A program made the position numbers and the translations under genes. This document shows positions 45,386 through 59,248 of a stretch of 64,000 nucleotides of DNA, piece after piece (the stretch's first letter is position 1; every line of letters starts with the position of its first letter). The stretch covers positions 338,000 to 401,999 of the forward strand of contig CBDCBW010000015.1 of NCBI GenBank assembly GCA_965214485.1. Direction: 5' to 3'. The DNA comes from Rhodothermales bacterium (GTDB lineage: Bacteria; Bacteroidota; Rhodothermia; Rhodothermales; JANQRZ01). The notes below the pieces were generated by a model. It made no database searches. It was given only the letters and a program-made list of their open reading frames with translations, and was not told the origin of the DNA.

Positions 45386-45465
45386 CGCTTCGGCTCATAT
45401 CGTTTCAGGTTGCTCGCCTGACTTCAAACGCCCCTGCTCCCGTTCGGATTCAGCGCGTCGGGAGT

Positions 45466-45598
45466 GGCCGTATAACAGATGGCCGCTCACCCGCGCAGGG
45501 CAAGCAGCACGATGGTCGGACGAAGCTACGGAAACGCAGACGTTCGGACGAGCCGAAAACGCTCGCGCCCTGCGTCGGCGTGCAGCGGCGGGTTATGT
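45466..45598 (-). repeat. attC-like site A5
   Basis: Boxes GTATAAC ... GTTATGT. Arms GGCCGCTCACCC / GTGCAGCGGCGG. The IS481-like element is inserted about 17 nt beyond its right box. Confidence 0.8.
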
Positions 45599-45680
45599 GC
45601 ACGGGCGGTACAGACCGGGCTGATGGTTTACACAATAGTCCAGGCACATGGTTTACACGGACACCCTTCCGTGAGTTGCC

Positions 45681-46878
45681 ATGCCCTTCCAGACTACCGA
45701 CCCGCCTATGGAGCGCGCCCGCCTCGTCGCCGCTCACCTCGACGGCCTCTACTCTGTCGCCGAACTCGCCGACCGCTTCTCGGTCTCCCGGCCCACCGTT
45801 TCTCGGTCTCCCGGCCCACCGTTTCTCGGTCTCCCGGCCCACCGTCTACAAGTGGATCGAGCGATACGCTGAGGGTGGCACCGAGGCGCTCCTCGACCGT
45901 AGCCGAGCCCGACATACCCAGCACGCTAAGACCGACCCGGAGGCGGAGCGCCTGCTCATTGAGGCCCGGCGGGCGCACCCCACCTGGGGCGCACGCAAGC
46001 TGCTGCCCTACCTCGCCCGGCGGCACGAGGGCGTCCGCTGGCCTGCGCCGTCTACGGCAGCGGCCATCCTCCAGCGCCACGGGCTGACGAAGACGCGCCG
46101 CAAGCGCCGGGTGCCGAAGCACCCCGGCTCCGCCCCGCTGGTGACGACGGCCCCCAACGAGGTCTGGACGGCCGACTTCAAAGGCCAGTTCAAGACCCGC
46201 GACGGGGTGTACTGCTACCCGCTGACGGTCTGCGACGCCCACTCGCGCTTTGTGCTCGGCTGCACCGGCCTGCCATCGGTCAAGCAGAAGGGCGCGAAGG
46301 ATCAGTTCGAGCGCCTGTTCCAGAAGTACGGCCTGCCCGAGGCGATCCGTAGCGACAACGGCGTACCGTTCGCCACGCAGGCGCTCTGCGGCCTGAGTCG
46401 GCTGAACGTGTGGGGGCTCAAGCTCGGAATCGGGCACGACCGGATCGCACCAGGGCAGCCTCAACAGAACGGACGCCACGAGCGGATGCACAAGACCCTG
46501 AAGGCCGAGACGGCACGACCACCCGAGCGTGAGATGGCACGGCAGCAGGTGCGCTTCGACGGCTGGCGCACGGAGTTCAACGACGAGCGCCCGCACGAGG
46601 CCCTCAGCTATGAGACTCCCGCTTCACTCTACGTGGCCTCGCCCCGCGCAATGCCCGACGTGCTCCCGAAGCCGGAGTACCCCGGCCACTTCGAGGTGCG
46701 CTGGCTCTCGAAGAGCGGCAACATCAAGTGGAAGCGGCAGCAGCTCTTCGTCAGTCAGGCGCTGGCGCACGAGTGGGTCGGGCTCGAGGAAGTCGCCGAC
46801 GGGGTGTGGAGCTTGTACTTCTACGACCGGCTGTTGGCGCGGCTTGACGAGCGCTCGGGGCTAAGGCTTCGGCCGTGA
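45681..46878 (+). pseudogene. IS481-family transposase (HTH + rve integrase core), frameshifted by a 23-bp tandem triplication
   Basis: MPFQTTDPPMERARLVAAHLDGLYSVAELADRFSVSRPTV (frame of 45681) continues as YKWIERYAEGGTEALLDRSR... only in the +1 frame after 45844. The core contains WTADF...D...RSDNGVPF...E. Confidence 0.8.
45776..45844 (+). repeat. Perfect 23-bp tandem repeat x3 (TTCTCGGTCTCCCGGCCCACCGT) inside the transposase gene
   Basis: Read directly at 45776-45798, 45799-45821 and 45822-45844. Two extra units add 46 bp, which shifts the frame by +1. Confidence 0.95.
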
Positions 46879-46935
46879 GGGGTGTAAACGATGTGGTCAG
46901 ACAAAACTGTAAAGGAACTGACCGGCTCCTACAGG

Positions 46936-47769
46936 TCAGACTTCGTACAGATCGTGGAGGAGTTGTATGGTGTCCCGTGCGAACTCTCGGGCCTCAGACT
47001 TCGATACAGTTCGGTTCCCGTGTACGATGCGGCTCAGGTCAGCGTAGAGATCGCTGATCGGCCCCCGGAATTTCTTGAAGTGATTGCTCCTGTCCAACAG
47101 CGCCCGGAGGTCGGCAGGTTGCATCTGATAATCCTCAGGAATGCGGAAACTCCGGTTCTGCTCTCGCGCTTTTCGCTCGTAGTACGACTTGGTGATGCCG
47201 TAATTCTGGTGCTCAGGGTCGAAGAAGCCTTCGAGTTGACACAGGTGGCGCAGCGCAATCTCAATCACCGTTCGGCAAAGGACGCAAACGGCGAGGTACT
47301 GCTCGAAGGCGTAGCACTGCCGCATCTCCTGCAAGAAGGAGCCGAACTCGGTGGGGGTGTCGTCAGCGCGAGCTACAAGCGCGCCCACTTCCAACATGCC
47401 GGAGACGTATTCGTAGTGGCTGTACCACGGGAAGAAGTGCTCCTCCGCAAGCTCGTCCAACTCGTCGAAGGTGTGCTCGTCATCGAAGAGGTCTGAGAGT
47501 GGAGTGTCCGAGACTACCTCTTCCAGAGGGAGCTTCTTGCCGAGCACGATCCTCTGGACGGTCGCTCGCACATCCCGCGACGCATCATCGGGCAGGAGCG
47601 CAGCCGGTGAATCGAGGAAGTGCTGTTTGATCGAGCGCTTGATCTGACCGTGCTCCTCGACCAGCGCACCGAGCGGCTTGAAGTCCTTCTTGTCGAACGC
47701 CAGAGACAGTGCGTCCGGGAACTCCTGCTCAATCTGCCGGAGGCGTTCGATCTGCTCAGCGAAGTCCAT
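46936..47769 (-). CDS. Hypothetical protein with a DUF4145/HEPN-like C-terminal region; cassette 8
   Basis: 277 aa. The helical C-terminus (CRTVIEIALRHLC ... LYADLSRIVHGNRTVSKSEAREF) is reminiscent of DUF4145/Abi-type HEPN. This is a recall-level assignment only. Confidence 0.5.
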   Translation of the reverse strand: MDFAEQIERLRQIEQEFPDALSLAFDKKDFKPLGALVEEHGQIKRSIKQHFLDSPAALLPDDASRDVRATVQRIVLGKKLPLEEVVSDTPLSDLFDDEHTFDELDELAEEHFFPWYSHYEYVSGMLEVGALVARADDTPTEFGSFLQEMRQCYAFEQYLAVCVLCRTVIEIALRHLCQLEGFFDPEHQNYGITKSYYERKAREQNRSFRIPEDYQMQPADLRALLDRSNHFKKFRGPISDLYADLSRIVHGNRTVSKSEAREFARDTIQLLHDLYEV

Positions 47770-47791
47770 CAGTGGGCACGGTGGGAAGGAA

Positions 47792-47914
47792 GCATAACAG
47801 GTTGCGCTTCAGCCGCGCCGGAACGCGACCGTGGAGTGGAAAGCTACGATGAGTGCTAGCACACCGACGGCAAAACCGCACAGCCCGGCGTCGGTCTGCA
47901 AGCGCGGGTTATAC
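47792..47914 (-). repeat. attC-like site A6 (divergent arms)
   Basis: Boxes GCATAAC ... GTTATAC. Arms GTTGCGCTTCAGCC / GGTCTGCAAGCGCGG still pair, so the structure is conserved rather than the sequence. Confidence 0.7.
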
Positions 47915-48472
47915 CGCCGGGCTTGGCAGTTTTTGTATAGCAAGACCTCGTCCTGATACCCAATCAACGTATTCCCCCCATCCCCCCACTTGAAATACAA
48001 CCTCCACTTGGTCCATTCTCGATAGGTAATTAAGCACGTTCCGATGTTCCGGCTTGTCAGCGAAGCGGATAGACATCCTCGTCACGGACCAAGGAATTCG
48101 AGAGGAATCCTGGTGGTAGATAGCAGATAGCTTCACCTCACCAGCAAAGGTGCTGATGTCATCAACAACCATCTTCGCGGCGGTAACAGGATTAGAAAGG
48201 TCGCAATTATCGCCTGTCAGCGGGTAATCATTCGCCCGAATTGAAGTCATACTGGAATGCCTCTCAGATATGTCGAGTAGTTCTTGCAGCAGTTCAGGAG
48301 CAGGTCGAAAATCATTGCCAGTGGAGATCGTCAAGGCAACCAACCGATCCTTCTCCCTTTGTTGAATGTCCTTCAGTCGTTTGGTTTCGGAGCGCGCCTT
48401 CCGAGTCGCTAACGCTTGCAGATAAAAGGCTAACGCTATACTGGCAACTAAAATAGTTAGGAAAAAGAGCAT
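47909..48472 (-). CDS. Membrane-anchored orphan protein; cassette 7
   Basis: 187 aa. N-terminal TM helix MLFFLTILVASIALAFYLQAL. Lower-GC sequence. Its TAA stop lies inside the GTATAAC box of A6. Confidence 0.6.
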   Translation of the reverse strand: MLFFLTILVASIALAFYLQALATRKARSETKRLKDIQQREKDRLVALTISTGNDFRPAPELLQELLDISERHSSMTSIRANDYPLTGDNCDLSNPVTAAKMVVDDISTFAGEVKLSAIYHQDSSRIPWSVTRMSIRFADKPEHRNVLNYLSRMDQVEVVFQVGGWGEYVDWVSGRGLAIQKLPSPAV

Positions 48473-48487
48473 AGATCAGGACGCGAG

Positions 48488-48619
48488 GCGGTATAACAGA
48501 CGGCCGCTCACCCACGCAGGGCAAGCAGCACAATGGTTGGACGGGGCAACGTAGACACCGATGCTCGGACGAGCCCAGAACGCTTGCGCCCTGCGTCGGC
48601 GTGCAGCGGCGGGTTATAC
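48488..48619 (-). repeat. attC-like site A7
   Basis: Boxes GTATAAC ... GTTATAC. Arms GGCCGCTCACCC / GTGCAGCGGCGG. A second stem is CGCAGGGCAAGC / GCTTGCGCCCTGCG. Confidence 0.8.
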
Positions 48620-48674
48620 AGAATCATTCTTGGTACCTCTGTTCAGGCTAAATAATATTTGATATTTAAGGCTT

Positions 48675-49727
48675 CTAAAATAGCGTAGTCTGCTCAACTG
48701 ACACTTCTGTTTCCGTTGCGCCGTCACCCGAAATAGCCGGGTCAAGCTCATCAAAGCGGAACCGGGAGCTTTCGAGGTACTCTTCCTCAAGCTCGAAGGC
48801 GAGGTAACGGCGGCCCATTTCCTGCGCCACCTCGCCGGTCGTGTTGCTCCCGGCGAAGGGATCAAGCACGAGATTACCTTCTTCAGTAGTAAGGCCGATG
48901 ATGAACTCGGGGAGCGCCTTCGGGAAGCGGGCAGGATGCCGCTTGGCTCCGGTCTCGCGGCACCGCCGCTGATAGCGGTCGTTGCTGGACGTGTTCGACG
49001 CCGCTACGACATTGACGGGGACGGGTTCACCGATCTCGTGCTCAAAGGCGTCATCCTCTAGGATGTTTGGCGGAATCGCGCCGCCGTTGTTCTTTCCGAA
49101 CTTGTCTGAGATGTCGTGTTCGCTCGGGCGGAGCTTCGGCGTGTAGCCGTTCTTCATCAGGTGCTTCTGCGCCTTGCTGTAAGGCTTCAGCACACTCCGG
49201 TTCGTCACTTTCCCGTCCTTCTCATCAACGACGGCAGAGGGGCGAAGCCACCAAACGGTGTTGACTGCATCCTTGACACGGATGCGGCGGACGGTCACCC
49301 ACTCGGCAGGCGTCGGCAGCTTGGCCGGATTGTACCAGTAGAGTTCTTGCGCGAGGAAGAAACCGAACTCCCCGCCTTCCTCGACTGGCTTGCACAGCCG
49401 AAGCAGAAACTCGTAATGGTAGAGGCTGCGATACGGTAGCCCTTTGATCCACGTACCGCCTAAGTCAATGACGAGCGAACCGTCGGGTTTAAGGATGCGC
49501 TTGAACTGCTCTGCAAAGGGTCTAAACCACTCGACGTACTTCTCAGACGTGACGTTGCCGTAGCCTTTCTGTCGGAGTAGCGCAAACGGCGGCGACGTGC
49601 AGATGAGGTCCACGGACTCATCGCCAAGCTGCTTCATCAGTTCCACGCTGTCGCCGAGGTAGGCCGCGCCAGCTTCCGTGGTGTAGTAAGGCTGGGCGTC
49701 GCCGAGGGTTGGGAGCGGCATGGGCAC
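48675..49727 (-). CDS. Beta-class DNA methyltransferase (N4-cytosine or N6-adenine); cassette 6
   Basis: 350 aa. Motif IV TSPPF lies near the N-terminus and motif I DPFAGSNTTG near the C-terminus. The first ATG is at 49721; the track start at 49727 is GTG. Confidence 0.85.
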   Translation of the reverse strand: MPMPLPTLGDAQPYYTTEAGAAYLGDSVELMKQLGDESVDLICTSPPFALLRQKGYGNVTSEKYVEWFRPFAEQFKRILKPDGSLVIDLGGTWIKGLPYRSLYHYEFLLRLCKPVEEGGEFGFFLAQELYWYNPAKLPTPAEWVTVRRIRVKDAVNTVWWLRPSAVVDEKDGKVTNRSVLKPYSKAQKHLMKNGYTPKLRPSEHDISDKFGKNNGGAIPPNILEDDAFEHEIGEPVPVNVVAASNTSSNDRYQRRCRETGAKRHPARFPKALPEFIIGLTTEEGNLVLDPFAGSNTTGEVAQEMGRRYLAFELEEEYLESSRFRFDELDPAISGDGATETEVSVEQTTLF

Positions 49728-49756
49728 CTCTTTAGATTGATTGCGCGATGGAAAGG

Positions 49757-49882
49757 CTTGACAACGTCAAGCGGGGAGCGCTACGTTAACGGCAATTTAT
49801 GCGCTCGCGCCAAAGGGTAGGGCATCTACCTTCGGGCCGAGCGCGCTGAACCATACTACGACAACGCCTTGACTAAGTCAAG
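49757..49882. promoter_or_regulatory. Divergent R-M control region with two copies of the palindrome CTTGAC-n3-GTCAAG
   Basis: CTTGACAACGTCAAG at 49757-49771 and CTTGACTAAGTCAAG at 49868-49882. The second copy overlaps the putative TTG start of the HTH gene. Confidence 0.6.
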
Positions 49883-50111
49883 CAGTTTTTCGCCAGAGGA
49901 CTTCAAGCCGGACGATTGGGTTTCGCAATCGGAGGCAGCGGACATCCGCGGCGTCTCTCGACAGGCGATCCACCAACTCGTGCAGAAGGGCCGGTTCCGC
50001 ACCTACGCTGTGGCCGGACGGACGCTCGTGCTACGGGAGGATGTGGTACAGTACGAACCGGACAAGGGAGGGCGTCCGCCCACCTCGGACGAGACCGAAC
50101 AAGGGGCATAG
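49869..50111 (+). CDS. Small HTH DNA-binding protein (excisionase/MerR-like HTH; candidate controller of the R-M unit); cassette 6
   Basis: 80 aa. WVSQSEAADIRGVSRQAIHQLVQKGRF reads as an HTH. The only in-frame start is TTG at 49869. Confidence 0.55.
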   Translation: MTKSSSFSPEDFKPDDWVSQSEAADIRGVSRQAIHQLVQKGRFRTYAVAGRTLVLREDVVQYEPDKGGRPPTSDETEQGA

Positions 50112-50112
50112 C

Positions 50113-51567
50113 GTGGCATCTGCAAAGAAGGAGAGCCAAATCCCCGTCGGCACGGGCTTCAGCCCCGATCTCGTGAGCCTGCCAGACTACGTTCGCGCCG
50201 CCGTTCGGCACAGCGGGGATTTGGACGCGCTGGAAGAAGCGCTCAACACACCGCCCGTCTGGATCGGCAAGAAGCTGAGGACGACGCGGCGCACCCGCCG
50301 CCACCCGATGGAAGCGGGGGCGCAGTACGGACTGCTCACGCCGGGGAGCTACGAAGCAACCGACCTCACGCGAAAGCTCGCCCGGCTGAGCGAGGACGAT
50401 TTGTACCAAGCGTTTGCGCGGCACATCGTTCTGAACGTCGGTGGTCTCCGTGTCGTGGAGGGAGCGCAGGAGATGCATCTTGACGGGCGGAAGGTCACCG
50501 GCGACTCGCTCGCGCAGTACCTCTCGGATCAGGGCTTCCGGGTCAGCGTCCACAACACCGCGATCAACACGATGCGGATGTGGCTGGCGAAAGCAAAGCT
50601 GTTCCCCGAAAGCGGGCGTGGGGCAGGAGCATGGCGACCGGACCCGGCGGTAAAGGAGCAACTTGTGGGGATGGACGACGATGCTATCGCGGCGCTGGCA
50701 GCATTGACGCCCGAACAGGTCGCGTTTGCTAAAACGCTCGCTCGCCTCGACCCGGACGACTGGACACCGGCGGCAGAGGTACGGGACCTTGCCGAAGCCG
50801 CTGAGGGCGTGCGGATTGGTCGCGGCTCGTTGCCGAACGAAGTGCTCCGTCCATTGGAGGCAGCGGGGCTGATCGAGTACCGAACGGGCGGCACCAGCAG
50901 CGGGAAGACTTCGGAGTTGAGAACGACGGAGGCGTTTCGGGCCGAGGTGCTGGAGCCGTTTCTGGAGCGGACGCTGAAAGACCTCGACCCGGCACTGACG
51001 GCCTACTACCGCACCCGGCCCGCCGACATTTACACTGCTCTCGGCTCGAAGGACAAGCACGAAAAGGGGCAGGCGCTTGAAGCGTTCGCCGTGATGGTGA
51101 TGCGTCTGCTCGGACTCCGGTTCGTCGGCTGGCGGCGGCGGGCCGAGGAAACCGGATACAGCGAAGTGGACGTGCTGATGGCCGGGCTGTTTGGGGCGGT
51201 GCCTACGACGTGGCAGGTGCAGTGCAAAAACACGCCGTCGGGACAGGTCCGCTTGGAGGATGTAGCGAAGGAAGTCGGGCTGATCCCGCTTATGCGGGCA
51301 ACGCACATCCTCGTGCTGGCAAACGCGCCGTTCACCCGCGATGCCCGGCGCTACGCCGACGCGATCATGCAGAACTCGTCGGTTACGGTTTTTCTGCTGG
51401 ACCGGACGGACTTCGAAGCAATTCGGGAGAGTCCCGCTAACCTGGGTCGCATTCTTCAGGCACAGGCCGAGCGCATCCGCGATCTCAAGATGGCAACGCC
51501 GGTATGGCGAGAAGGCGATGCACGCGGGGGACCGGATCAACCCTCGCTCGGTCTACCGCTGGGCTGA
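50113..51567 (+). CDS. Restriction endonuclease-like protein with a C-terminal Mrr-type PD-(D/E)xK domain; cassette 6
   Basis: Likely GTG start at 50113, just after the HTH gene stop. The C-terminus (GYSEVDVLMAG...WQVQCKNTPSGQV) fits the Mrr_cat D...(E/Q)xK pattern. Its stop abuts attC A8. Confidence 0.65.
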   Translation: MASAKKESQIPVGTGFSPDLVSLPDYVRAAVRHSGDLDALEEALNTPPVWIGKKLRTTRRTRRHPMEAGAQYGLLTPGSYEATDLTRKLARLSEDDLYQAFARHIVLNVGGLRVVEGAQEMHLDGRKVTGDSLAQYLSDQGFRVSVHNTAINTMRMWLAKAKLFPESGRGAGAWRPDPAVKEQLVGMDDDAIAALAALTPEQVAFAKTLARLDPDDWTPAAEVRDLAEAAEGVRIGRGSLPNEVLRPLEAAGLIEYRTGGTSSGKTSELRTTEAFRAEVLEPFLERTLKDLDPALTAYYRTRPADIYTALGSKDKHEKGQALEAFAVMVMRLLGLRFVGWRRRAEETGYSEVDVLMAGLFGAVPTTWQVQCKNTPSGQVRLEDVAKEVGLIPLMRATHILVLANAPFTRDARRYADAIMQNSSVTVFLLDRTDFEAIRESPANLGRILQAQAERIRDLKMATPVWREGDARGGPDQPSLGLPLG

Positions 51568-51568
51568 T

Positions 51569-51695
51569 TCTGTATAACAGAGGGCCGCTCACCCGCAGAG
51601 GGCCGCGCGGCGGTGGGACGAGGCAACGTAGACGCCGAGGTTCGGACGAGGCAAGACCGTGCAGCCCTTCGTCGGCGTGCAGCGGCGGGTTAGGC
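51569..51695 (-). repeat. attC-like site A8
   Basis: Boxes GTATAAC ... GTTAGGC. Arms GGGCCGCTCACCC / GTGCAGCGGCGG. Confidence 0.8.
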
Positions 51696-51713
51696 AGAAT
51701 GCGGGCAGTGGAG

Positions 51714-53066
51714 TTAGTTCAGAGTTGCCCTCAGCGAAGGGAAGAAGGCTGAAACCGGATTGTCTACAGAGTCCGGATCGTCAAGAGCTTTCCGGACCTG
51801 GCTGGCGATCTCAGACTTGTACACCTCAAGCCTTGGCACCAGTGCAAAGATGCTCGAGGTATCAATCTGAATCGTCCTCACTTGATTGAGGTCGAACGGA
51901 ATGTGGTCTGCTGCCCGCATGATCTGGACAGTCGGCAGACGACAGGCGTGCCTCAAGGCCAACTCGTAGAATACGTTGGGGTTATGATAAGACAGATCTG
52001 CGATGACTAACTTTGACTTGAGGATGTACTCGATGATCTGGGCCGTGATGATACCAGGCTCCGCGATATAGTCCGCACGCACCAGCTTCAGTCCAAACGG
52101 CTCCAAGGCGGGCTCGATAATAGAGCCCATGAAGAGATCTGAGTGCTGACGCTGCTCCGATTCCTCATCACCTATCGGCGTGATGTAGAAACAAATATGA
52201 TCGAAGTCAGCGCTTGAACTGGCGGGTTTGGCGCGACCTGTCGCAACTACTCCGTCAGGGGCCGGGCGTCCACCCCGGCTTGGGGCACGAACGGCGCGCT
52301 CCAGTCCTTCAAGGGCGTGGTCGAACGTCAAGAGGCGTTCAGCACCTGAAAGAGTTCTGAGAAGGCCCAGATACCGAGCGTTGACGATGAATATGTCAAC
52401 GCACTCGTTCGATCTCTGCTCTGACATACCGGTCTCACGTAACGCGTCGCGCAAAAGAGAACTCGACGGCATTCGTGAGCCTGCAAATGTCTCATAAAGC
52501 AACTTGAACGGCTCGACACCCATTATCCCAAGCTCAATCCGAGCCTTAGTCCGCTCGTGCTCGGACACGTCGTCGCTGGTCGCCTTGTCACCTTCGGGAG
52601 TCAACTGAAGATGCTCCGCTTTATGACTCCCCTTCACAAGACCGTACTTGCTCGCGTTCGTGAGAAGCTGCCGACTCTGACTACTCTCAGGAGACTTGCC
52701 GAACTCATCGAACAAGGTGAGACGACGGACCTGGTTGCTTCCTGCAGTCTCTTGGATGAACTGCGCAAAGCTCACGACCTCCTCAAAGGAGGCATTAGGG
52801 TAGGGTAGCGGCGTTCGCTGTCTGGGCTTCTTTGCGGCAGGCTTCTTCTTATCAGCAGGCTTCTTCTTCCGTGTCGTCTTCTTCCCAGCATTGGCCTTTG
52901 GCTTCCGGCTGGCGGGTTTCTTAGCCGTAGCCTTTTGAGCCGACTCCGCCTTCTTCGCTGGCTCCGCTGCCTCAGTTGACTGTTCGCCCTCCGACATGGG
53001 CTCGGCGTCAGAGGACTTCGACTCTGATTCCCCGAAGAGGTTGGTGCCATTCGCTCCTACTTCCAT
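51714..53066 (-). CDS. Three-part protein: Lys/Pro/Ala-rich basic tail, two winged-helix-like repeats, and a C-terminal nucleoside 2-deoxyribosyltransferase/TIR-like domain; cassette 5
   Basis: 450 aa. Basic tail KKPASRKPKANAGKKTTRKKKPADKKKPAAKKPRQR. C-terminus CFYITPIGDEESEQ...VRADYI...LVIADLSYHNPNVFYELALRHA matches the NDT-like pattern (recall-level). Confidence 0.6.
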   Translation of the reverse strand: MEVGANGTNLFGESESKSSDAEPMSEGEQSTEAAEPAKKAESAQKATAKKPASRKPKANAGKKTTRKKKPADKKKPAAKKPRQRTPLPYPNASFEEVVSFAQFIQETAGSNQVRRLTLFDEFGKSPESSQSRQLLTNASKYGLVKGSHKAEHLQLTPEGDKATSDDVSEHERTKARIELGIMGVEPFKLLYETFAGSRMPSSSLLRDALRETGMSEQRSNECVDIFIVNARYLGLLRTLSGAERLLTFDHALEGLERAVRAPSRGGRPAPDGVVATGRAKPASSSADFDHICFYITPIGDEESEQRQHSDLFMGSIIEPALEPFGLKLVRADYIAEPGIITAQIIEYILKSKLVIADLSYHNPNVFYELALRHACRLPTVQIMRAADHIPFDLNQVRTIQIDTSSIFALVPRLEVYKSEIASQVRKALDDPDSVDNPVSAFFPSLRATLN

Positions 53067-53131
53067 TGGACTAACCGGTCTGTTTCAAGAGCCTGAACAA
53101 GTTCGCGTAGAAGATACTCGGTCGGGGCATT

Positions 53132-53261
53132 CTGCCTAACAGAGGGCCGCTCACCCGCAGAGGGCCGCGACCAGGATGGACTCGAAGATATGACGGCGTG
53201 GGCGCTCGACCGCAGGCAAGACGACCGAGGCCCTATGTCGGCGTGCAGCGGCGGGTTAGCA
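53132..53261 (-). repeat. attC-like site A9
   Basis: Boxes GCCTAAC ... GTTAGCA. Arms GGGCCGCTCACCC / GTGCAGCGGCGG. Confidence 0.8.
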
Positions 53262-53628
53262 CGCAGGCGTTGAGGGCACACCGTTGGAACTGCGAAGCTT
53301 ACCCCCCTCCTACCTACGACGCGGGTCCGCCCGCCTCGGTGAGACTCTGGACACGGCTGCGTAGCGGCGGTGACCGCACTCGCTCTGGATTGGGTGCCCG
53401 GCTGTGGGGGCCGAGCAGACGGAGGAACTGCGACGCCGAGCTCGCACGGCTGGCAGAACCTCCCGCGACGCTGGTAGGCACCCACGAGCACACGCTCACC
53501 CGAGGCCGCCTCTGCCGGGCCGTGGAGGCGAGCACGGGCCACTCGGTCCACAAGAACACCGAGGCTGGCAAGGGCGCGAGTGGTTCCGCCTTGCAAGGAA
53601 ACGGACTCCGCCCCACGACGAGGGCCTG

Positions 53629-53759
53629 CGTGCTAACAGAGGGCCGCTCACCCGCGCAGGGCAAACAGCACAATGGTCGAACGAAGCTACGGAAGCGCAG
53701 GCGTTCGGACGAGCCGAGAACGCTCACGCCCTGCGTCGGCGTGCAGCGGCGGGTTAGCC
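53629..53759 (-). repeat. attC-like site A10
   Basis: Boxes TGCTAAC ... GTTAGCC. Arms GGGCCGCTCACCC / GTGCAGCGGCGG. Confidence 0.8.
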
Positions 53760-54569
53760 GGACCCGTGGGGCACGGCAGTTGGGGACAGCATCTCTTGAA
53801 CCTCCTCAATCGTGTACGGTGGAGACTTCCGGTGGATTACGGCGTGGCAGTTCGGACAGACTGGACGGAGGTCGTCTACCGGATCTACCTCGTACCGCTC
53901 GCCCAACTCTGACACCGGGCGGAGGTGATGGACGTGGATGAAGCCCTCGGTGGCGGCACCGTAGGCACGGGCGAAGTCGAACCCGCAGACGATGCACGCA
54001 ACGCCGTAGTAGGCAAGGCACCGCCGCCGTGCCTCCGGGTTGCGCTCGTACACGTTGAGGCTGACGGCGCGCGGGGTGCCCTCGTACAGCGGGCGCGGCT
54101 CAGCGCTCCGGTTAGAATCCGGCGGGGAGGCCGAGCCGATGACGGAACCCCACTCCCGTTCCAGCGCTTCCGCAACGTGAGGCGGGATCGAGGTACCCGA
54201 CGCCTGGGTGTTCCAGTAGACGTCAGCGAACTCGGGCGCGTCCAGCCGCTCGCGCGGGAGGATCGGATCAGTCTCGGGATCTTGCAGCGCGTCGAACTCC
54301 ACTTCGACGAACCAGCCTGGCGTGTCGCGCTCCGGGTCCCAATGATCGTCTTGGTACGACGGCGTTGTGACGGAGCCGCTGGCGATGATCCCGCGTGGTT
54401 CGAGACCCTGGCGGAGCAAGAAAACGCGGTCGCCCTGCTCGATCCGTTTCGTGTTTCCGCAACTCCAACGACGGACCAATCGCCCGCGCTCGGCAACCTC
54501 GTTTGCGTCGGCGGCGAGGCCGTCCCACTTCCACCGCTTCGGGTTCCACGTCAGGAGATACGTCGCCAT
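53754..54569 (-). CDS. PUA-like (EVE/ASCH-type) domain fused to an HNH nuclease (candidate modification-dependent restriction enzyme); cassette 3
   Basis: 271 aa. N-terminus YLLTWNPKRWKW...GDRVFLLRQG..GIIASG. C-terminal HNH CIVCGFDF...FIHVHHLRPV...CPNCHAVIH. Its TAA stop lies inside the GGCTAAC box of A10. Confidence 0.75.
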   Translation of the reverse strand: MATYLLTWNPKRWKWDGLAADANEVAERGRLVRRWSCGNTKRIEQGDRVFLLRQGLEPRGIIASGSVTTPSYQDDHWDPERDTPGWFVEVEFDALQDPETDPILPRERLDAPEFADVYWNTQASGTSIPPHVAEALEREWGSVIGSASPPDSNRSAEPRPLYEGTPRAVSLNVYERNPEARRRCLAYYGVACIVCGFDFARAYGAATEGFIHVHHLRPVSELGERYEVDPVDDLRPVCPNCHAVIHRKSPPYTIEEVQEMLSPTAVPHGSG

Positions 54570-54590
54570 AGCACAGCGATTCGGAGGGTA

Positions 54591-54720
54591 CGGCTAACAG
54601 TTGACCGCTCAGCCGCGTGGGGCAAACAGCACGGAAGTTGAACGAAGCGAAGGTAGCGCCGACGCCAGAACGAGCCGAGAACGCTCACGCCTCACGTCGG
54701 CCTGCAGCGGTGGGTTATGT
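54591..54720 (-). repeat. attC-like site A11
   Basis: Boxes GGCTAAC ... GTTATGT. Arms GACCGCTCAGCC / CTGCAGCGGTGG. Confidence 0.75.
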
Positions 54721-54745
54721 GGCGTACAGTAGATGTCCACTCATT

Positions 54746-55441
54746 CTAATGTCCGAACCGATACGAACCTAGGTCGATCAGGTCTAACTCCTCGATTCGA
54801 ATCGCCATCGCCTCGTAGGAGACGCCGAAGAGTTCAGCAATTGGCTTCACGGGGTTCCCGGCGAACATTCCAGCCTTTGCCAAGCGAAGAGAGAGTGGCC
54901 GCATATCGGGACTTGTAGCTAGCAGAGGTCCCAAATCTTTAATCCCGAGGGAGAATGCCGAGTCGTTGGATACGATAAACCGATCAGATCCGAAGATCGC
55001 TCGGAATGCCTCTCTCATCACGGACTCGGGCATCAAGAAGTATGCGGCGAACTTGTCGGCTTCATACTCCACTTGTGGGCGGTGGCCCCGAATCAGCGAG
55101 CCATCAAGGCCACGATCTCTGAACTGTTTGTCTGCTTTGTGGAGAATCGCATGACCAAGCTCATGCGCCGCCGTGAAAGCCTGGACCACTGGTACGAACT
55201 GCTCTGATACGGCAGCGTATCGCTTCGGTTTGTCGATGAACCCAGCCACCTCGGTTACGTCGCCACCATCGATGATCTGTCCCAAGAATGGAGCGCGCTC
55301 AAAAGTGTAGCCGAAAGCATGAAATGCGGAGGGCGGATCAAGAACATCGATGACGCCTCTGTCGGTACCGTCTGTCCATATGTCTGACCTATTTCTCCAA
55401 AGGTCGTTCTGGACGTTTTTAGCGATGGAGTGAACGACCAC
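54746..55441 (-). CDS. ImmA/IrrE-family zinc metallopeptidase; cassette 2
   Basis: 231 aa. HEXXH motif AAHELGHAILH followed by EYEADKFAAYFLMP. The GTG start is embedded in the IS200-like end hairpin, so the true N-terminus is uncertain. Confidence 0.75.
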   Translation of the reverse strand: MVVHSIAKNVQNDLWRNRSDIWTDGTDRGVIDVLDPPSAFHAFGYTFERAPFLGQIIDGGDVTEVAGFIDKPKRYAAVSEQFVPVVQAFTAAHELGHAILHKADKQFRDRGLDGSLIRGHRPQVEYEADKFAAYFLMPESVMREAFRAIFGSDRFIVSNDSAFSLGIKDLGPLLATSPDMRPLSLRLAKAGMFAGNPVKPIAELFGVSYEAMAIRIEELDLIDLGSYRFGH

Positions 55442-56020
55442 CCCCAGAGGGGGTGGCTTCTGTATTCCTCACGGCGACCCCTGAAAGGGGATCGCGCGCT
55501 CACGAGAACAGATCGTAGTTGGCCTGCTGCCGCTCCTGTTTCTTCTCCTCCTGCTCCTGATACTGAACGTAGCGCCGGATCAGATCCTCGTTCAAACCCA
55601 CCGTGTTCACAAAGTACCCTCGCGACCAGAAATGATTGCCCCAATACGGCTTCTTCCGCAGACGGGGGTAGCTCTTGAACAGCTTGATCGCCAGCTTCCC
55701 CTTCAGAAAGCCCATGAACTGCGAGACCGCCAGCTTCGGTGGGATCGAGCAGAGCAGGTGGATGTGGTCGGGCTGCACGCTTAGCTCCATCACCTCGACC
55801 TGCTTCCACGCACACAGCACCCGGATGTCGTGCTCGACGGCCTCTTTGATAGCCCCTTCGAGCACACGGTAGCGGTACTTCGGCGTCCAGACGATGTGGT
55901 AGTTGCACTGGTAGACCGTGTGCGTGAGCTTTCGATACTTCGCGTTGCGCTCTGCCATGCTGCCAGTTTACGGCATAGCCGAACACACATCACCACCGTC
56001 AAAGACGGTGGGTTGCTACG
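55440..56020 (-). mobile_element. IS200/IS605-family element (tnpA only; ends approximate) inside cassette 2
   Basis: The Y1 transposase gene is flanked by subterminal hairpins: CCACCGTCAAAGACGGTGG at 55994-56012, and GACCCCTGAAAGGGGATC and CCACCCCCAGAGGGGGTGG at 55437-55492. Confidence 0.7.
55500..55958 (-). CDS. tnpA: IS200/IS605-family Y1 transposase TnpA
   Basis: 152 aa. YHIVWTPKYRYRVL, the HUH motif (DHIHLL) and the catalytic-Tyr region WSRGYFVNTVG. Confidence 0.9.
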   Translation of the reverse strand: MAERNAKYRKLTHTVYQCNYHIVWTPKYRYRVLEGAIKEAVEHDIRVLCAWKQVEVMELSVQPDHIHLLCSIPPKLAVSQFMGFLKGKLAIKLFKSYPRLRKKPYWGNHFWSRGYFVNTVGLNEDLIRRYVQYQEQEEKKQERQQANYDLFS

Positions 56021-56769
56021 CTAAACTCAATCTCCGAGTCAGTATACTTCGAGTCGATTAGACTCTTGTCTCGAATGAGGTTGATGTCCAATCCGAAGCC
56101 GTCATTCGAAGCTTGTGCGCCAGACCTCAACTCCAAGACTCTGGTTTGCAGTTCAGTGCCGATGAGGCGAGCGCGTTCCTCCAACTTTTCCGCGCGAGCT
56201 AGCAACTCCACGATCTCGCTCTCCCCGTTGAAGCTCTTGAGGTTGAGGTACACGATCGAAATAGCGCCGGTCGCTCCAGACAGGGCGGAGTCGATAGCCA
56301 CCTCCGAGTCGCCTCGGGCAGCCTTAAACCCAATGTCGAATACGGTGACGGCGTGTTCGGCGAGCGCCAAACAGCTCTCAGCTATTTCAAGAGGAATTTC
56401 ACTGGCAACATGCAACTCATCCAAAGCCTGCTTCCCATACCTCCATCTCTGGGCGGGATCGGTCTCGGCGTTTCTTGCAAGTCGCGCCTTGATGACCTTG
56501 TCAAACTGAACTGAGTCCTCGTCGAACGCTTCCCACAGCTTGGGCTCGATGTCATTGGTGATGGACTCCTCGATACTGTTAAGCTCGGCTACGGCTTCTT
56601 CATGTTCATGGCCGCCACGTCGCTTCGAAAGATCGATGACGGTTTTCGTCAGAGCGCACGAGATCAGGCCGAGCAGCGCGGCTGCGCTACCCGAACCGGG
56701 CTTGTGCCCGCCAGCGCCGAACTTCCTCAGAAGCTCGTCTAGGGGAAGCTTTGCTAGATCGACTGCCAT
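55999..56769 (-). CDS. Cyclodeaminase/cyclohydrolase (FTCD C-terminal) family protein; cassette 2. Its C-terminus may be altered by the IS200 insertion.
   Basis: 256 aa. N-terminus LPLDELLRKFGAGGHKPGSGSAAALLGLISCALTKTVIDLS matches the FTCD_C pattern (PGGGSAAAL). The last 7 codons run into the IS end. Confidence 0.6.
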   Translation of the reverse strand: MAVDLAKLPLDELLRKFGAGGHKPGSGSAAALLGLISCALTKTVIDLSKRRGGHEHEEAVAELNSIEESITNDIEPKLWEAFDEDSVQFDKVIKARLARNAETDPAQRWRYGKQALDELHVASEIPLEIAESCLALAEHAVTVFDIGFKAARGDSEVAIDSALSGATGAISIVYLNLKSFNGESEIVELLARAEKLEERARLIGTELQTRVLELRSGAQASNDGFGLDINLIRDKSLIDSKYTDSEIEFSVATHRL

Positions 56770-56837
56770 GCCTCTCTGATCTGTGAACCTCGGGAGCTAA
56801 CGCACGCATCCGTAGCAGGTTGCCTTGTGCTCCCGCT

Positions 56838-56970
56838 AGCCACATAACAGACGGCCGCTCAACCGCGAAGGGCAAACGGCATGATGGTGAATCAGAGCGC
56901 AGGATACGCCGACGGTCGGACAACGCGAAAACGCTGACGCCCTTCGTCGGCTTGCAGCGGCGGGTTATGT
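56838..56970 (-). repeat. attC-like site A12
   Basis: Boxes ACATAAC ... GTTATGT. Arms GGCCGCTCAACC / TTGCAGCGGCGG. Confidence 0.8.
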
Positions 56971-57714: not shown

Positions 57715-58746
57715 CTATTCGTTCCACCCGGAGCGTGGCTGCGGGTCGCGGCGCTCGCCGTAGGGGTGAGTCGCGGTCTGCGTCTCCTCGCCCTGCTCCT
57801 CCTTGCCGGCACCCTCGTCGGTGGAGGGCGTCGCGGCCTCGCGTACGACCTTCTCGGTCTCGACGACCCGCACGGCGTCCTCGTCCGGGCGGATGTGTGC
57901 GCCATAGCGCTGCGCCCAGATTTGCGTAAACTCGGCCCCGACGAGCAGGATCAGAGCCGTGTAGTAGATCCACACGAGGATCACGACGATGGAGCCGGCA
58001 GCCCCGAACGCCTCGCCGGGGTCCGAGCGCCCGAGGTAGAACCCGATCAGAAACTTCCCGAGCACGAACAGCAGCGCCGTCACGAGACCGCCCACCCACA
58101 CGTCGCGCCACGTGATCTGCGCGTCGGGCAGCACCTTGAAGATCGCGGCGAAGAGGAACGTGAACAAAGCGAGGCTGACGGCGATTTCGCCGACCCACGC
58201 GAACGCCGCCCCGACCGGCCCGAGCGAGGCCTCGATCTGACCGAACAGCCCCGAGAGCAGCGCGCTCGCCGCGAGCGAGACGATGAGGAAGAACGCGATC
58301 GTGAGCACCATCCCGAACGAGAGCACGCGCTTCGTGAGGAAGTTGACGACCCCGCTCCCGGATTCGTCGGGCCTGACCTCCCAGGCGCGGTTGAGCGACT
58401 GCTGAAGCTGGACGAACGCCCCCGTCGCGCCGAAGAGCAGCGCGAGCAGCCCGAACAGTTTGCCCACCAGCGATCCCCCGCCGAGGTCGCCCGCGTTCTC
58501 GATCATCGTCCGAATCTCCTCTGCGCCCCGCTCGCCGAGGAGGCCGCCGACCTGCCCCGTGATCTGCTCCTGCACGGTCTCCGCCCCGAAGACCGCGCCG
58601 GCTACGCCGACGAGGATGGCGAGCAGCGGCGGGAGCGAGAGCAGCGTGTAGTAGGCAATGGCCGCGCTCATGCTGGTGCAGTTGTCGTCGGCGACCTCTT
58701 GGCCGGTCTGTTTGACGAGGGCGAGGGCGTTGGAGAACGAAATCAT
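57715..58746 (-). CDS. YihY/BrkB-family membrane protein
   Basis: 343 aa from ATG 58744-58746 (MISFSNALALVKQTG). SAAIAYYTLLSLPPLL and six TM segments are typical of YihY. Confidence 0.8.
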   Translation of the reverse strand: MISFSNALALVKQTGQEVADDNCTSMSAAIAYYTLLSLPPLLAILVGVAGAVFGAETVQEQITGQVGGLLGERGAEEIRTMIENAGDLGGGSLVGKLFGLLALLFGATGAFVQLQQSLNRAWEVRPDESGSGVVNFLTKRVLSFGMVLTIAFFLIVSLAASALLSGLFGQIEASLGPVGAAFAWVGEIAVSLALFTFLFAAIFKVLPDAQITWRDVWVGGLVTALLFVLGKFLIGFYLGRSDPGEAFGAAGSIVVILVWIYYTALILLVGAEFTQIWAQRYGAHIRPDEDAVRVVETEKVVREAATPSTDEGAGKEEQGEETQTATHPYGERRDPQPRSGWNE

Positions 58747-58842
58747 GGCGGGGGAGGCGAAGGGGAGGGAACGTGGACGCTCCGAACTCTTTTCTACAGA
58801 CGTGAATCTAAGCACCCCTACCGACGCGCTTCCGTTCCGCCG

Positions 58843-59166
58843 ATGCCCCGCCTCTCCGACGACGGCACGACCGTTACCCTCGACCTCCACGGCGCGCACG
58901 TGGACGACGCGCTCGACCTCGCCTGCCGCACGGCGGCGCTCGCCGCCCGGCGCGGGCGCTCGGCGCTCCGCCTTATCCACGGCACCTCGACCTCCGACCC
59001 GTGCGCGCGCAACCGCACCATCAAGCACGCCCTCTACGACCTCCTCGACGACGGCGACCTGCCCGAAGCACAAAGCGCCGTCCGGCTCGGAGGCGAGACG
59101 CTCGTTAGCCTTCCGCTCGGCGCACGCCCCGATGCCACCCCGATCCGCCTTTCCGATGTCTCCTGA
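58843..59166 (+). CDS. Smr-domain protein
   Basis: 107 aa (MPRLSDDGTTVTLDLHGAHVDDALD...LRLIHGTS). LDLHG...IHG is the Smr signature. Confidence 0.7.
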   Translation: MPRLSDDGTTVTLDLHGAHVDDALDLACRTAALAARRGRSALRLIHGTSTSDPCARNRTIKHALYDLLDDGDLPEAQSAVRLGGETLVSLPLGARPDATPIRLSDVS

Positions 59167-59248
59167 GGACGGTGGACAGTCAACTCCGGCACGAGGGCAC
59201 GCTGCGCCACGGTCTCGGTAGCTTTGCAGGTTTCCTCCCCCTCCTCCC

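Follow-up and report, generated by a model that had tools for sequence, protein, structure and literature searches.

Within the 64-kb window, by which we mean the whole stretch of DNA analysed, a gene of 450 codons occupies positions 51714..53066 of the minus strand, from its ATG start to a stop codon at 51714-51716. It fills one 1562-bp cassette (51578..53139, minus strand) of an array that counts 12 attC sites in the window. The cassette starts with TTAGGC at 53139, complementary to its own R'' core GCCTAA (51694..51689), and ends with the G of the R' core GTTATAC at 51578. Its own attC (51572..51694, minus strand) lies 20 nt downstream of the stop codon, and the R' core of the attC of the preceding, upstream cassette (53134..53260, minus strand) is the junction where the cassette begins, 68 nt before the ATG. 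The complementary R''/R' cores and the single ORF ending beside its own attC identify the element as an integron cassette. Minus-strand reading of the array, and with it the sense orientation of the gene, follows from additional bases in the plus-strand 3' arm and from the stop-to-attC geometry, seen in eight of nine cassettes. The first-pass annotation had placed it among defence cassettes, and this setting is borne out: attC repeats stand on both sides, and an RM system, an EVE-HNH endonuclease and an M78 peptidase are encoded in neighbouring cassettes. The ORF has a GC content of 55.4%, the chromosome around it 69%. Neither intI nor attI was found beside the array within the window, the edges being occupied by an IS5-family transposase and a BrkB-family gene, with no tyrosine recombinase. 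The array within the window is of CALIN type, and an intI may lie beyond it. No sigma-70-like promoter was recognised in the cassette, including the 68-nt interval before the ATG, and neither a Pc promoter nor an integrase in the 64-kb window; this bears on the expression of the cassette and counts against the main reading proposed below.

The coding status of the ORF is beyond doubt, since more than 2000 database proteins match it at E<=0.001, the best at about 55% identity. The best 120 of these are full-length, and the top homologs align across 80-95% of the length with E ~1e-138. The previously proposed ORF is real, with the minus strand now added to a call that had carried none, and it is indeed the sole credible ORF of the cassette, the other ORFs of at least 50 aa overlapping it in a shadow-like manner. 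Nearly all homolog starts align to Met24, so that the ATG at 52997 (minus strand, 427 aa) may be the true start; to judge by this alignment, the annotated one is uncertain. Exact-sequence look-ups of the protein from either start, and of three neighbouring proteins, returned no identical entry.

The protein had been described as a histone-H1-like tail followed by two internally similar helical modules and an NDT/TIR-like C-terminal domain. The tail is present: residues 1-85 (52812..53066, minus strand) form a disordered, acidic-then-basic segment (AF2 pLDDT <50), rich in Lys, Pro and Ala in the zone 47-86, where K/R make up 18 of 40 residues. Its histone-H1-like character did not hold as a mark of the family, the segment being a dispensable low-complexity tail of variable length, with database matches of low complexity only. 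A basic tail as a defining feature was rejected, because many homologs have none.

Both helical modules show the H1-(beta)-H2-H3-beta-beta order of a winged-helix (wHTH) topology in AF2 models with pLDDT >90. Module 1, residues 88-165 (52572..52805, minus strand), carries a recognition helix 'SPxSxxSRQLxTNxSKYGL' that is highly conserved among homologs, with S128, R132 and Y141 invariant and V113, R114, R115 and K124 nearly so. A helical bridge and module 2 follow at residues 169-260 (52287..52562, minus strand), and the wing motif 'G.ER' of the latter (G241, E243, R244) is invariant. The presumed internal similarity thus stands at the level of fold, both modules being winged-helix, but their mutual sequence similarity is marginal: BLAST aligns them at 26% over 62 aa (E=0.07), hhalign joins 21 columns only (P=0.028), and the weak likeness is confined to the recognition helix and the wing. 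A clear sequence duplication was rejected on these grounds. Foldseek searches with the modules returned generic neighbours only, the wH domains of SelB, O-methyltransferases, DtxR/MntR, FokI and Stn1, at E 0.03-0.3, and a tblastn search of plasmids and phages with the tandem-wHTH region gave zero relatives. The N-terminal part resembles a nucleic-acid binder in its two modelled wHTH folds, in the Arg/Lys/Gln/Asn residues conserved on the recognition helix of module 1 and in the basic tail next to them. Domains of the wHTH type may instead bind protein, RNA or small ligands, or autoregulate transcription, and this, like the weakness of the fold neighbours, counts against the main reading. A variable linker, residues 261-288 (52203..52286, minus strand), is predicted to be disordered (pLDDT ~37-39) and is gapped in the alignment; the whole-protein pTM of 0.49 suggests no fixed packing of the C-terminal domain, hereafter the head, against the wHTH part.

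The head, residues 289-450 (51717..52202, minus strand), is modelled as an alpha/beta domain of the TIR/NDT superfamily, of ThsI type as argued below. The NDT/TIR-like assignment could be confirmed at the superfamily and fold level. The top Foldseek match in the PDB is MilB (4ohb, E=9e-4, TM to target 0.54), followed by NDTs, DNPH1 and the TIR domain of TcpB/BtpA, the top matches ranging from E 1e-3 to 1e-2 with TM to target of 0.5-0.6. The TIR matches (TcpB/BtpA, RUN1 and SARM1, E 3e-3 to 1e-2) are no better than those to NDT-type enzymes. In BFVD, the head is 32% identical to a phage 'CMP/hmCMP hydrolase'. Across all architectures, at least 95% of heads retain Glu368 (codon 51963..51965, minus strand), within the motif N-P-N-V-F-Y-E-L, together with 16 further residues of polar or structural kind; R330, D332, D357, N362, N364, Y367, R372, H373 and P390-F391-D392 are conserved along with Glu368. 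In the AF2 model Glu368 stands at the start of the helix after beta3, where NDT, DNPH1, MilB and TIR enzymes have their catalytic Glu, the two being putatively equivalent to judge by their motifs. The stretch 'FYELA' is likewise a putative counterpart of the aromatic-Glu-(L/I)-(G/A) motif that holds the nucleophile Glu of NDT-type enzymes. On the basis of conservation and position, Glu368 is a candidate catalytic residue. The N-glycosidases NDT, DNPH1 and MilB (PF05014 clan) appear to share with the head, besides the fold found by Foldseek, a Glu after an aromatic residue at the helix start after beta3 ('YEL(A/G)') and a Gly-containing loop after beta1, whereas the head has an extra TIR-like 'RAD...PG' loop after beta2 and many additional invariant Arg, His and Asp residues.

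Profile searches place the head outside the existing sequence models. Pfam gave zero matches, PF05014 included, for the cassette protein and 11 other family heads even at E<=10, and searches of PDB sequences with the head profile and the full-family profile gave zero matches as well. A phage relative of the head, SA13 gp16, reaches PF05014 at E=0.0032, with 18 bits against a cut-off of 28.8. The Pfam models TIR, TIR_2 and ThsB_TIR are not matched by the cassette protein at E<=10, and none of the 18 PADLOC TIR models matched by a canonical TIR control is matched by its family. The PADLOC check did agree with the TIR-like call in one respect, a match to PDLC00733 'Effector/TIR' at E=3e-9, the only PADLOC model matched and one that the canonical TIR control does not match. 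The absence of cross-matches puts the family and the canonical TIR domains in two separate clades. PDLC00733 is a CBASS-type 'Effector' model, which relatives of the head match down to E 2e-17; of its 388 positions only ~250-357, corresponding to the head, are matched. As for a CD-NTase context, no cyclase-type family is found among the recurrent neighbours, and a homolog search from phage SM1 gp11 yielded near-identical streptococcal prophage variants and did not reveal the CBASS effector behind PDLC00733. The head superfamily is large (16,186 clusters at E<=1e-3), and across it heads are joined to wHTH modules, TPR-S, assorted helical or beta tails, or a second head.

A sharper assignment came from BLASTP, in which residues 310-448 match the head of a plasmid protein at E=5e-23, with 34% identity over 137 aa. 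This protein, a head joined to TPR-S, is encoded beside two ThsB_TIR genes and SLATT on an IncP plasmid; judged by its architecture and operon, it matches ThsI, which a preprint of December 2025 (10.64898/2025.12.03.692087) describes as the effector of type VIII Thoeris, of 'CMP-hydrolase' kind. According to the same work, which also gives the ThsI/ThsH layout that the plasmid operon matches, type VIII Thoeris protects against T2, cADPR alone arrests the growth of cells that carry it, and ThsI has been demonstrated to act as a toxic effector in defence. Judged by homology, the C-terminal domain of the cassette protein is the head of ThsI-type Thoeris effectors, which is more specific than the NDT/TIR-like call. 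The two have in common the motifs CFxxxxxG, RAD, PG/GII, (V/I)xAD(L/I)S..N.N..YEL..RH, PFD/HFD and a C-terminal D.P tail, and both are mobile and defence-associated. Their organization differs: the head is N-terminal in ThsI and C-terminal here, and the place of the TPR-S sensor is taken by two N-terminal winged-helix modules. Pfam detects no TPR or TPR-S in the cassette protein or in eight family members. Whereas ThsI has an adjacent TIR gene, searches with three TIR seeds found no TIR-like ORF in the 64-kb window and one within 6 kb at only one of 80 homolog loci. With neither TPR-S nor an adjacent TIR, the family is presumably outside cADPR control. The single exception is a Terracidiphilus homolog, 51% identical and of the same architecture, which is followed after 13 bp by a ThsB-like TIR gene (PADLOC ThsB1 4e-34; Pfam TIR_2 3.5e-18). 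It makes a signal-dependent mode possible and in that respect counts against the main reading; a TIR neighbour as a general partner was rejected in view of its occurrence at one locus in 80.

Other defence proteins offer more distant comparisons. The canonical TIR NADases (ThsB, TIR-SAVED, TIR-APAZ/SPARTA, SpbK, AbTir) have the superfamily and fold of the head and a conserved Glu in what appears to be the equivalent position; they also have a logic in common with it, in which a sensor, fused to the effector or acting as its partner, turns the effector on. The NDT-like effector of Retron-Eco1 (Ec86) and the DUF4062 'NIR'/Swarozyc TIR-like NADases are divergent members of the same fold class that were recruited as defence effectors. 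The Retron-Eco1 effector is a reported NAD+ hydrolase, partnered by a reverse transcriptase and msDNA, while Swarozyc relies on phage-protein-triggered assembly; NAD+ hydrolysis is reported for the DUF4062 proteins too. No sequence-level relationship of the cassette protein to the Retron-Eco1 or DUF4062 effectors was detected. In genetic layout it resembles the single-cassette defence systems of integrons (Kieffer 2025, Darracq 2025, Getz 2025, cited in 10.64898/2026.03.17.712381), which are likewise compact, self-contained and held in one cassette of an array with RM and other defence cassettes. The integron literature examined does not mention this type of protein. That the combination of domains is not a described system, as had been suspected, is upheld: the family has neither a Pfam family nor a PADLOC system model, and it is absent from the integron-defence literature examined and from a TIR survey that set aside stand-alone proteins.

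For the neighbourhood comparison 80 genome loci were kept, all with full-length genes, from more than 12 phyla and at ~50% identity, and neighbour genes were chosen by an amino-acid-composition filter. No neighbour family recurs among them, which agrees with the single-gene organization proposed earlier. The largest neighbour cluster comprises at most 11 of the 80 loci, and each Pfam or PADLOC family is seen in at most two of the 147 nearest neighbours, TIR not being recurrent. The downstream ORFs of ~210-250 aa present at 24 of 78 loci were considered as one divergent partner, and this was rejected since they share no Pfam/PADLOC family. The distribution of the family is patchy: a search across the genomes of 185,579 species gave only 551 pattern-matched stretches. 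The gene often adjoins integrases, transposases, toxin-antitoxin or restriction genes, and its recorded neighbours include HipBA, PIN toxin-antitoxin pairs, AAA_15/21 and a reverse transcriptase. Several homologs lie amid housekeeping genes, twice beside purine-biosynthesis genes, which counts against the main reading. Attachment sites resembling attC, sought by self-BLAST for dispersed repeats, a procedure that recovered the array of the window, appear at only two of the 80 loci, and the family is thus mostly found outside integrons. The full-length gene occurs in two predicted prophages (IMG/VR), and relatives that consist of the head alone occur as antisense morons in temperate phages of Staphylococcus and Streptococcus, where they are auto-annotated 'CMP/hmCMP hydrolase' or 'nucleoside 2-deoxyribosyltransferase'. 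With its place in an array with RM and EVE-HNH, its foreign GC, patchy spread, neighbours and prophage copies, the gene behaves like a defence or mobile gene.

The reading that we favour, though tentatively and at somewhat less than an even chance, is that the cassette is a self-contained, one-protein defence module of the abortive-infection type, with an N-glycosidase head and an N-terminal nucleic-acid sensor. The earlier proposal of a single-gene defence effector is in this sense supported, through the ThsI-type head and the stand-alone gene, the defence function itself being putative. The head would be a TIR/NDT-superfamily N-glycosidase, the same as in ThsI, which, once active, would destroy NAD+ or a nucleotide or deoxynucleotide by means of a site centred on Glu368, and the loss of this essential metabolite would stop phage and infected cell alike. 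The head of the Thoeris effector is switched on by TPR-S, which senses the cADPR that the partner TIR protein makes. Here TPR-S and TIR are missing, and their place is taken by two winged-helix modules, often after a basic tail, on a flexible linker. This N-terminal part could sense a nucleic acid associated with infection, in the simplest case DNA that is invading or replicating, and its binding would release the heads or assemble an active oligomer. A bolder version, which we consider possible and yet rather doubtful, would make the whole family signal-independent, DNA-triggered Thoeris effectors, in which, within one polypeptide, the tandem wHTH would directly recognise nucleic acid that enters the cell and switch on a ThsI-type head, TIR and cADPR being bypassed; in its radical form, the head would act on the bound DNA. 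If this radical form were true, it would give the TIR/NDT fold its first DNA glycosylase.

The identity of the head with that of ThsI could also mean that the protein is a Thoeris-type effector still in need of a TIR-made signal, the wHTH part perceiving cADPR or a related molecule and the TIR protein being encoded elsewhere in the genome or, as in the Terracidiphilus homolog, next to the gene in some strains. We regard this as unlikely, given the rarity of TIR genes near the family and their lack of recurrence among the nearest neighbours; the closest Acidobacteria relatives have no TIR either. Furthermore, integron cassettes are mobilised singly, so that an effector dependent on a partner in trans would in most cases no longer work once transferred, and wHTH domains are not known to sense cADPR. 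The DNA-binding type of the modules covalently joined to the head points in another direction, that of a DNA-directed glycosylase in which wHTH and basic tail place the head on DNA to excise phage bases, possibly modified ones, a direct restriction instead of metabolite depletion. The best structural neighbours, MilB (a hydroxymethyl-CMP hydrolase) and DNPH1 (an hmdUMP hydrolase), are specific for modified pyrimidine nucleotides, and the neighbouring EVE-HNH cassette, a modification-reading nuclease, suggests that the array was selected by phages with modified DNA. The known NDT, DNPH1 and MilB enzymes, however, act on free nucleotides through a 5'-phosphate pocket and not on polymers, the cADPR-activated ThsI head is toxic to uninfected cells, which points to a host metabolite as substrate, and most head relatives lack any DNA-binding domain; a DNA-directed glycosylase is therefore quite unlikely.

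Toxicity of the active head is equally what a selfish, autoregulated toxin or addiction module would require, in which the wHTH part, a typical autorepressor domain, represses its own promoter or restrains the head and the toxin stabilises the cassette, the array or a mobile element. Chromosomal integron arrays do carry stabilising toxin-antitoxin cassettes, and the homolog neighbourhoods are rich in HipBA, PIN-RHH and PIN-DUF433 pairs. The gene itself has no separate antitoxin and no recurrent neighbour, and conservation at ~50% over more than 12 phyla, both wHTH modules included, suggests a universal ligand and not the operator of each host. We attribute to such a module a probability as low as that of the glycosylase, and addiction and defence are not mutually exclusive. 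The head-only relatives of temperate phages, with their hydrolase and deoxyribosyltransferase auto-annotations, and the homologs located amid housekeeping or purine-biosynthesis genes would suit a scavenger acting in counter-defence or on signalling nucleotides, or else a plain nucleotide-salvage enzyme or regulator without a conflict role. Either is very unlikely in view of the patchy distribution and of a gene that is cassette- and prophage-borne with foreign GC. The phage copies stand on the lysogeny side and run antisense to the lytic genes, an arrangement that belongs to prophage-encoded defence and not to lytic-cycle counter-defence, and the nearest characterised relative is a toxic immune effector.

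What is new here is a C-terminal domain that lies outside the canonical TIR and NDT models and is, by sequence, homologous to the ThsI-type head. A large family that so far has neither a Pfam nor a PADLOC system model thereby gains a testable hypothesis and, with Glu368, a candidate catalytic residue. The recently described ThsI head seems to extend beyond Thoeris as a widely reused effector module, which comes with TPR-S, with tandem wHTH, with many unrelated tails, as tandem heads and in short prophage forms. The substrate and the activation mechanism of the head may be most easily approached in the wHTH version, since this presumably needs neither partner nor second messenger. The family could also exemplify a sensor swap in an immune effector, a second-messenger sensor having been exchanged for a putative direct nucleic-acid sensor, and as such bears on the interconversion of signalling-based and direct-sensing immunity. 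Finally, as a GC-poor foreign cassette in a GC-rich chromosomal attC array that has no integrase within the window, it supplements the view that integron arrays outside Vibrio act as defence reservoirs.

The minus-strand ORF at 51714..53066 encodes a protein of 450 aa, hereafter the query. All other ORFs of at least 50 aa in the cassette interval overlap it and look like shadow ORFs, which bears out the first-pass annotation of this ORF as the only gene of the cassette. The database contains more than 2000 relatives, and the best 120 of them show about 55% identity over 80-95% of the length (E about 1e-138); every one is labelled 'hypothetical', and none carries a precomputed Pfam domain. Since the start codons of almost all homologs in a 40-sequence alignment fall at query Met24, the true start may be the ATG at 52997, giving 427 aa. 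The attC boundaries and orientation place the cassette on the minus strand, running from 53139 to 51578. Within it, the gene lies in sense orientation; 68 nt separate it from the upstream junction, and 20 nt after the stop codon the cassette's attC (51694..51572, minus strand) follows. The GC content of the ORF is 55.4%, compared with 61% for the attC array and 69% for the flanks, and the ORF is therefore foreign DNA.

A pattern search revealed 12 copies of an attC-type repeat on the plus strand, from about 42426 to 56970; 100 shuffles contained no instance of either search pattern. A ..YTAAC core opens each repeat and GTTA.. closes it, the closing core of one repeat being complementary to the opening core of the next; since this relationship is symmetric, it gives no orientation of the array. 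On the plus strand, the repeats carry unpaired extra bases in the 3' arm and a longer spacer in the 5' arm, which we take to be the pattern of an attC bottom strand. In eight of nine cassettes, the stop codon of a credible minus-strand ORF lies -5 to +56 nt from the attC below. This gene-then-attC layout is canonical and constitutes more decisive evidence than the arm asymmetry; on both grounds the array is read on the minus strand. It is bordered by an IS5-family transposase gene on the left (41469-42251, plus strand) and a BrkB-family gene on the right (57715-59283, minus strand). Since neither edge carries an integrase, and no integron integrase is present within the window, the array is integrase-less (CALIN-like) within the window. 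Two insertion sequences, an IS481-like rve transposase (45580-46878, plus strand) and an IS200/IS605-type TnpA (55500-55958, minus strand), lie inside the array, and either would enlarge the cassette it interrupts and probably immobilise it.

The query cassette sits among restriction genes. A 3-kb cassette (48619-51572) carries a complete restriction-modification set, composed of an N6_N4 methylase on the array strand (48675-49727, minus) and, opposite to that strand, a small HTH_17 protein (49869-50111) and a 508-aa Mrr_cat endonuclease (50041-51567). Another neighbouring cassette encodes an EVE-HNH endonuclease (53754-54569). With attC sites on both flanks and these two cassettes nearby, the earlier placement of the gene in an integron cassette beside defence genes holds. 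A single cassette further on (54720-56842) carries an FTCD_C (cyclodeaminase-like) protein (55999-56769) and an M78/IrrE-type peptidase (54746-55441) with the IS200 TnpA between them, and may be a two-gene system interrupted by the insertion sequence. The short cassette of about 370 bp at 53260-53631, between two attC sites, contains no credible ORF, only GC-rich shadows running into the attC sites.

An AlphaFold2 model of the query, built on the family alignment (mean pLDDT 78.8), comprises a disordered tail (residues 1-85, pLDDT below 50), a winged-helix module (88-165) and a helical bridge with a second winged-helix module (169-260), both with pLDDT above 90, a disordered linker (261-288, pLDDT about 37-39) and a C-terminal α/β domain, the head, of order b1-a1-b2-a2-b3-a3-b4-b5-a (289-450, pLDDT 75-94). 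Modelled by itself, the middle region reached pLDDT 91.9 and pTM 0.85. Residues 1-85 vary across the 40-sequence alignment, whose strong conservation starts at residue 86, with 62 invariant columns. The basic tail described in the first-pass annotation is present, 18 of the 40 residues at 47-86 being Lys or Arg; many homologs in the alignment have none, and its database matches are of low complexity only. The two modules, described there as similar to each other, share a predicted winged-helix fold, whereas their sequence similarity is marginal (BLAST, 26% over 62 aa, E=0.07; hhalign, P=0.028 over 21 columns covering the recognition helix and wing). In Foldseek, the tandem matches generic winged-helix domains, those of SelB WH2-4, an O-methyltransferase wH, DtxR/MntR, FokI and Stn1 (E 0.03-0.3).

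The proposed relation of the C-terminal domain to nucleoside 2'-deoxyribosyltransferases (NDT) and TIR domains was also recovered. Searched against the PDB with Foldseek, the head matched MilB, a hydroxymethyl-CMP hydrolase (4ohb, E=9e-4), then nucleoside 2'-deoxyribosyltransferases, DNPH1 and the TIR domains of TcpB/BtpA, RUN1 and SARM1, the scores of all being similar and modest. Among viral models, the best match was to a siphovirus protein of 303 aa (32% identity), automatically named 'CMP/hydroxymethyl CMP hydrolase'. Profile searches of the head gave no match to Pfam or to PDB sequences, and the query matches neither the family profiles of canonical TIR domains nor that of NDT; one phage relative shows a sub-threshold match to Pfam Nuc_deoxyrib_tr (E=0.003). 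In PADLOC, the query has one match, PDLC00733 ('Effector', TIR; E=3e-9), and four family members and two phage relatives likewise match PDLC00733 only, down to 2e-17. Since a canonical TIR protein used as control matches 18 PADLOC TIR models, PDLC00733 not among them, the head forms its own clade within the TIR/NDT superfamily. By eye, it combines what are presumably an NDT-like β1 Gly loop and 'FYEL(A/G)' with a TIR-like 'RAD...PG' loop, which serves as a lead.

An exhaustive HMMER scan with the head, against 50%-identity clusters, returned 16,186 matches at E<=1e-3, 6,522 at 1e-10 and 306 at 1e-30. The best 150 fall into two main architectures, wHTH-wHTH-head (380-490 aa) and a large sister group of about 250-340 aa with an N-terminal head (44-50% identity) and unrelated C-terminal tails. 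These tails are helical, beta-rich, a 460-aa extension or a second head, and five that were tested gave no convincing Pfam match. The protein P0271 (329 aa) is such a tandem, whose more divergent second head keeps RAD, NPNV.YE and P.D; this hints at a dimeric or higher oligomeric working form of the head. In 49 phage records the head stands alone, in proteins of 216-219 aa, and all those inspected are temperate Staphylococcus or Streptococcus phages. In phages SA13 (gp16, 4492-5142 of locus L090) and SM1 (gp11, 4495-5154 of locus L091), the gene is a solitary insert on the strand opposite to the early and replication genes; in SM1, this is the integrase strand. This layout is that of lysogeny-expressed morons, and the phage proteins could be prophage-encoded defence or counter-defence. 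Across all head forms, 17 positions are at least 95% conserved (C292, F293, G299, D310, P319, R330, D332, D357, N362, N364, Y367, E368, R372, H373, P390, F391 and D392), and the polar signature around Glu368, the candidate catalytic residue, is intact superfamily-wide.

The head was found on 82 plasmids, none of which carries the wHTH part, and tblastn with the tandem-wHTH module gave no match in plasmids or phages. In an operon of the E. coli IncP plasmid pKMi029_2 (6013-9209 of locus L092), a 402-aa protein carries the head at its N-terminus and TPR-S/MAP3K_TRAF_bd over the remainder; downstream of it come two ThsB_TIR genes, the first after 4 bp, and then a SLATT_1/SLATT_3/DUF4231 protein. 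The query head aligns with this protein at E=5e-23 (34% identity, 137 residues). The type VIII Thoeris effector ThsI consists of a 'CMP hydrolase' domain and TPR, the type VII effector is the SLATT protein ThsH, and rare operons contain both (10.64898/2025.12.03.692087). In that survey, from which stand-alone proteins were purposely left out, the Thoeris TIR produces canonical cADPR upon infection, cADPR arrests growth of cells with type VIII Thoeris, and the system protects against T2, the substrate of ThsI being still unknown (10.64898/2025.12.03.692087). The 402-aa protein matches ThsI by architecture and operon rather than by comparison with the authors' sequences. The pKMi029_2 operon combines Thoeris-like components of types VIII and VII on a conjugative plasmid. 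The PGAP start of the 402-aa protein is probably too short, as an upstream in-frame 'LSKKKLSLLCFVV' restores the conserved β1 motif. Under the PGAP name 'TRAFs-binding', the head-bearing protein was matched on many Enterobacterales plasmids, the operon inspected being that of pKMi029_2 only. The query would work in the manner of a ThsI-type effector. Of three testable features of ThsI, it shares the homologous head, whereas it has neither TPR-S nor a TIR partner gene; because of these two differences, it is not to be filed as Thoeris.

With one genome taken per species (185,579 species), a pattern scan yielded 551 stretches whose encoded relative includes at least the head; of these, the best 80 are full-length without exception (44-57% identity) and belong to Gamma-, Beta- and Alphaproteobacteria, Acidobacteriota, Planctomycetota, Verrucomicrobiota, Actinomycetota, Bacteroidota, Chloroflexota, Nitrospirota, Elusimicrobiota, Fibrobacterota and Bacillota. 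When flanking ORFs within 6 kb were clustered, no neighbour family exceeded 11 of the 80 loci, with variable distance and strand, and among the 147 nearest credible neighbours each Pfam or PADLOC family occurred at most twice. Since no neighbour recurs and, in a search with three TIR seeds, Terracidiphilus alone has an adjacent TIR gene (one of 80), the family has no partner gene. In Terracidiphilus (10001-11848 of locus L025, identical to L001-L003), a gap of 13 bp separates the wHTH-head gene from the downstream gene of a 232-aa ThsB-like TIR protein (PADLOC ThsB1 4e-34, PDC-S66 5e-59), and the pair may be a wHTH-head-based Thoeris variant.

Besides housekeeping genes, the neighbours include methylases of types II and III, ResIII, PIN, M78, PtuA, mad2/3 and PbeA. 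Annotated homolog contexts include HipBA, an AAA_15/21 pair, a prophage-like segment with a serine recombinase and a KAP NTPase, a tyrosine integrase, transposases, PIN-RHH and PIN-DUF433 pairs, an HD protein and a reverse transcriptase; one consists exclusively of housekeeping genes. Purine-biosynthesis genes adjoin the homolog in two Acidobacteria-type loci (5222-9264 of L001; 4897-5646 and 10882-13944 of L096), purF/purL in one and purQ/purL in the other, which may reflect a lineage-specific insertion hotspot or coincidence. In Dyella and Nitrospiraceae, attC-like short direct repeats with ends GCGTTAGGC, GCGTTAAC or ATAGTTAGG adjoin the homolog (9964-9996 and 11240-11272 of L010; 3921-3975 and 5167-5221 of L016), suggesting that the family occurs in further integron-like arrays. 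Two IMG/VR predicted prophages carry a full-length gene (8001-9155 of L098, 4-1191 of L099; 47-49% identity) and nine more viral contigs the head only. The query gene is horizontally mobile.

By its sequence, the head is homologous to a demonstrated toxic immune effector. We propose that it would act as an N-glycosidase on NAD+ or a nucleotide, and that the two wHTH modules, together with the basic tail where present, would serve as the sensor by binding infection-associated nucleic acid. Binding would lift inhibition or drive oligomerisation, which enzymes of the TIR/NDT fold class usually need, and the outcome would be growth arrest and abortive infection. Taken as a whole, this chain is tentative, somewhat short of probable, while a defence role is reasonably probable and catalytic activity of the head likely. 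The earlier reading as a defence effector is supported and sharpened to a partner-less protein with a ThsI-type head.

A Thoeris-type effector still requiring a TIR signal is kept alive by the single TIR-adjacent homolog, but the 79 loci without TIR and the logic of single-cassette mobility make it unlikely. The specificity of MilB and DNPH1 for modified pyrimidines, together with the DNA-binding-type modules of the query, would suit a DNA-directed glycosylase; ThsI toxicity is independent of phage DNA, however, and most heads have no DNA-binding domains, so that we consider this quite unlikely. An autoregulated toxin or addiction module is equally improbable, and a counter-defence or housekeeping role very improbable.

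As first suspected, the wHTH-wHTH-head protein matches no described system among the Pfam families, the PADLOC system models and the integron-defence and TIR-survey literature compared; the architecture may have been mentioned earlier in silico. Modular sensor swapping is a familiar theme; what is new here is the architecture, in which a known effector head occurs without a partner and with another putative sensor. The family is large, spans many phyla without a Pfam match and is immediately testable; through it, the substrate of the ThsI head and the way this head is activated may be most simply worked out.
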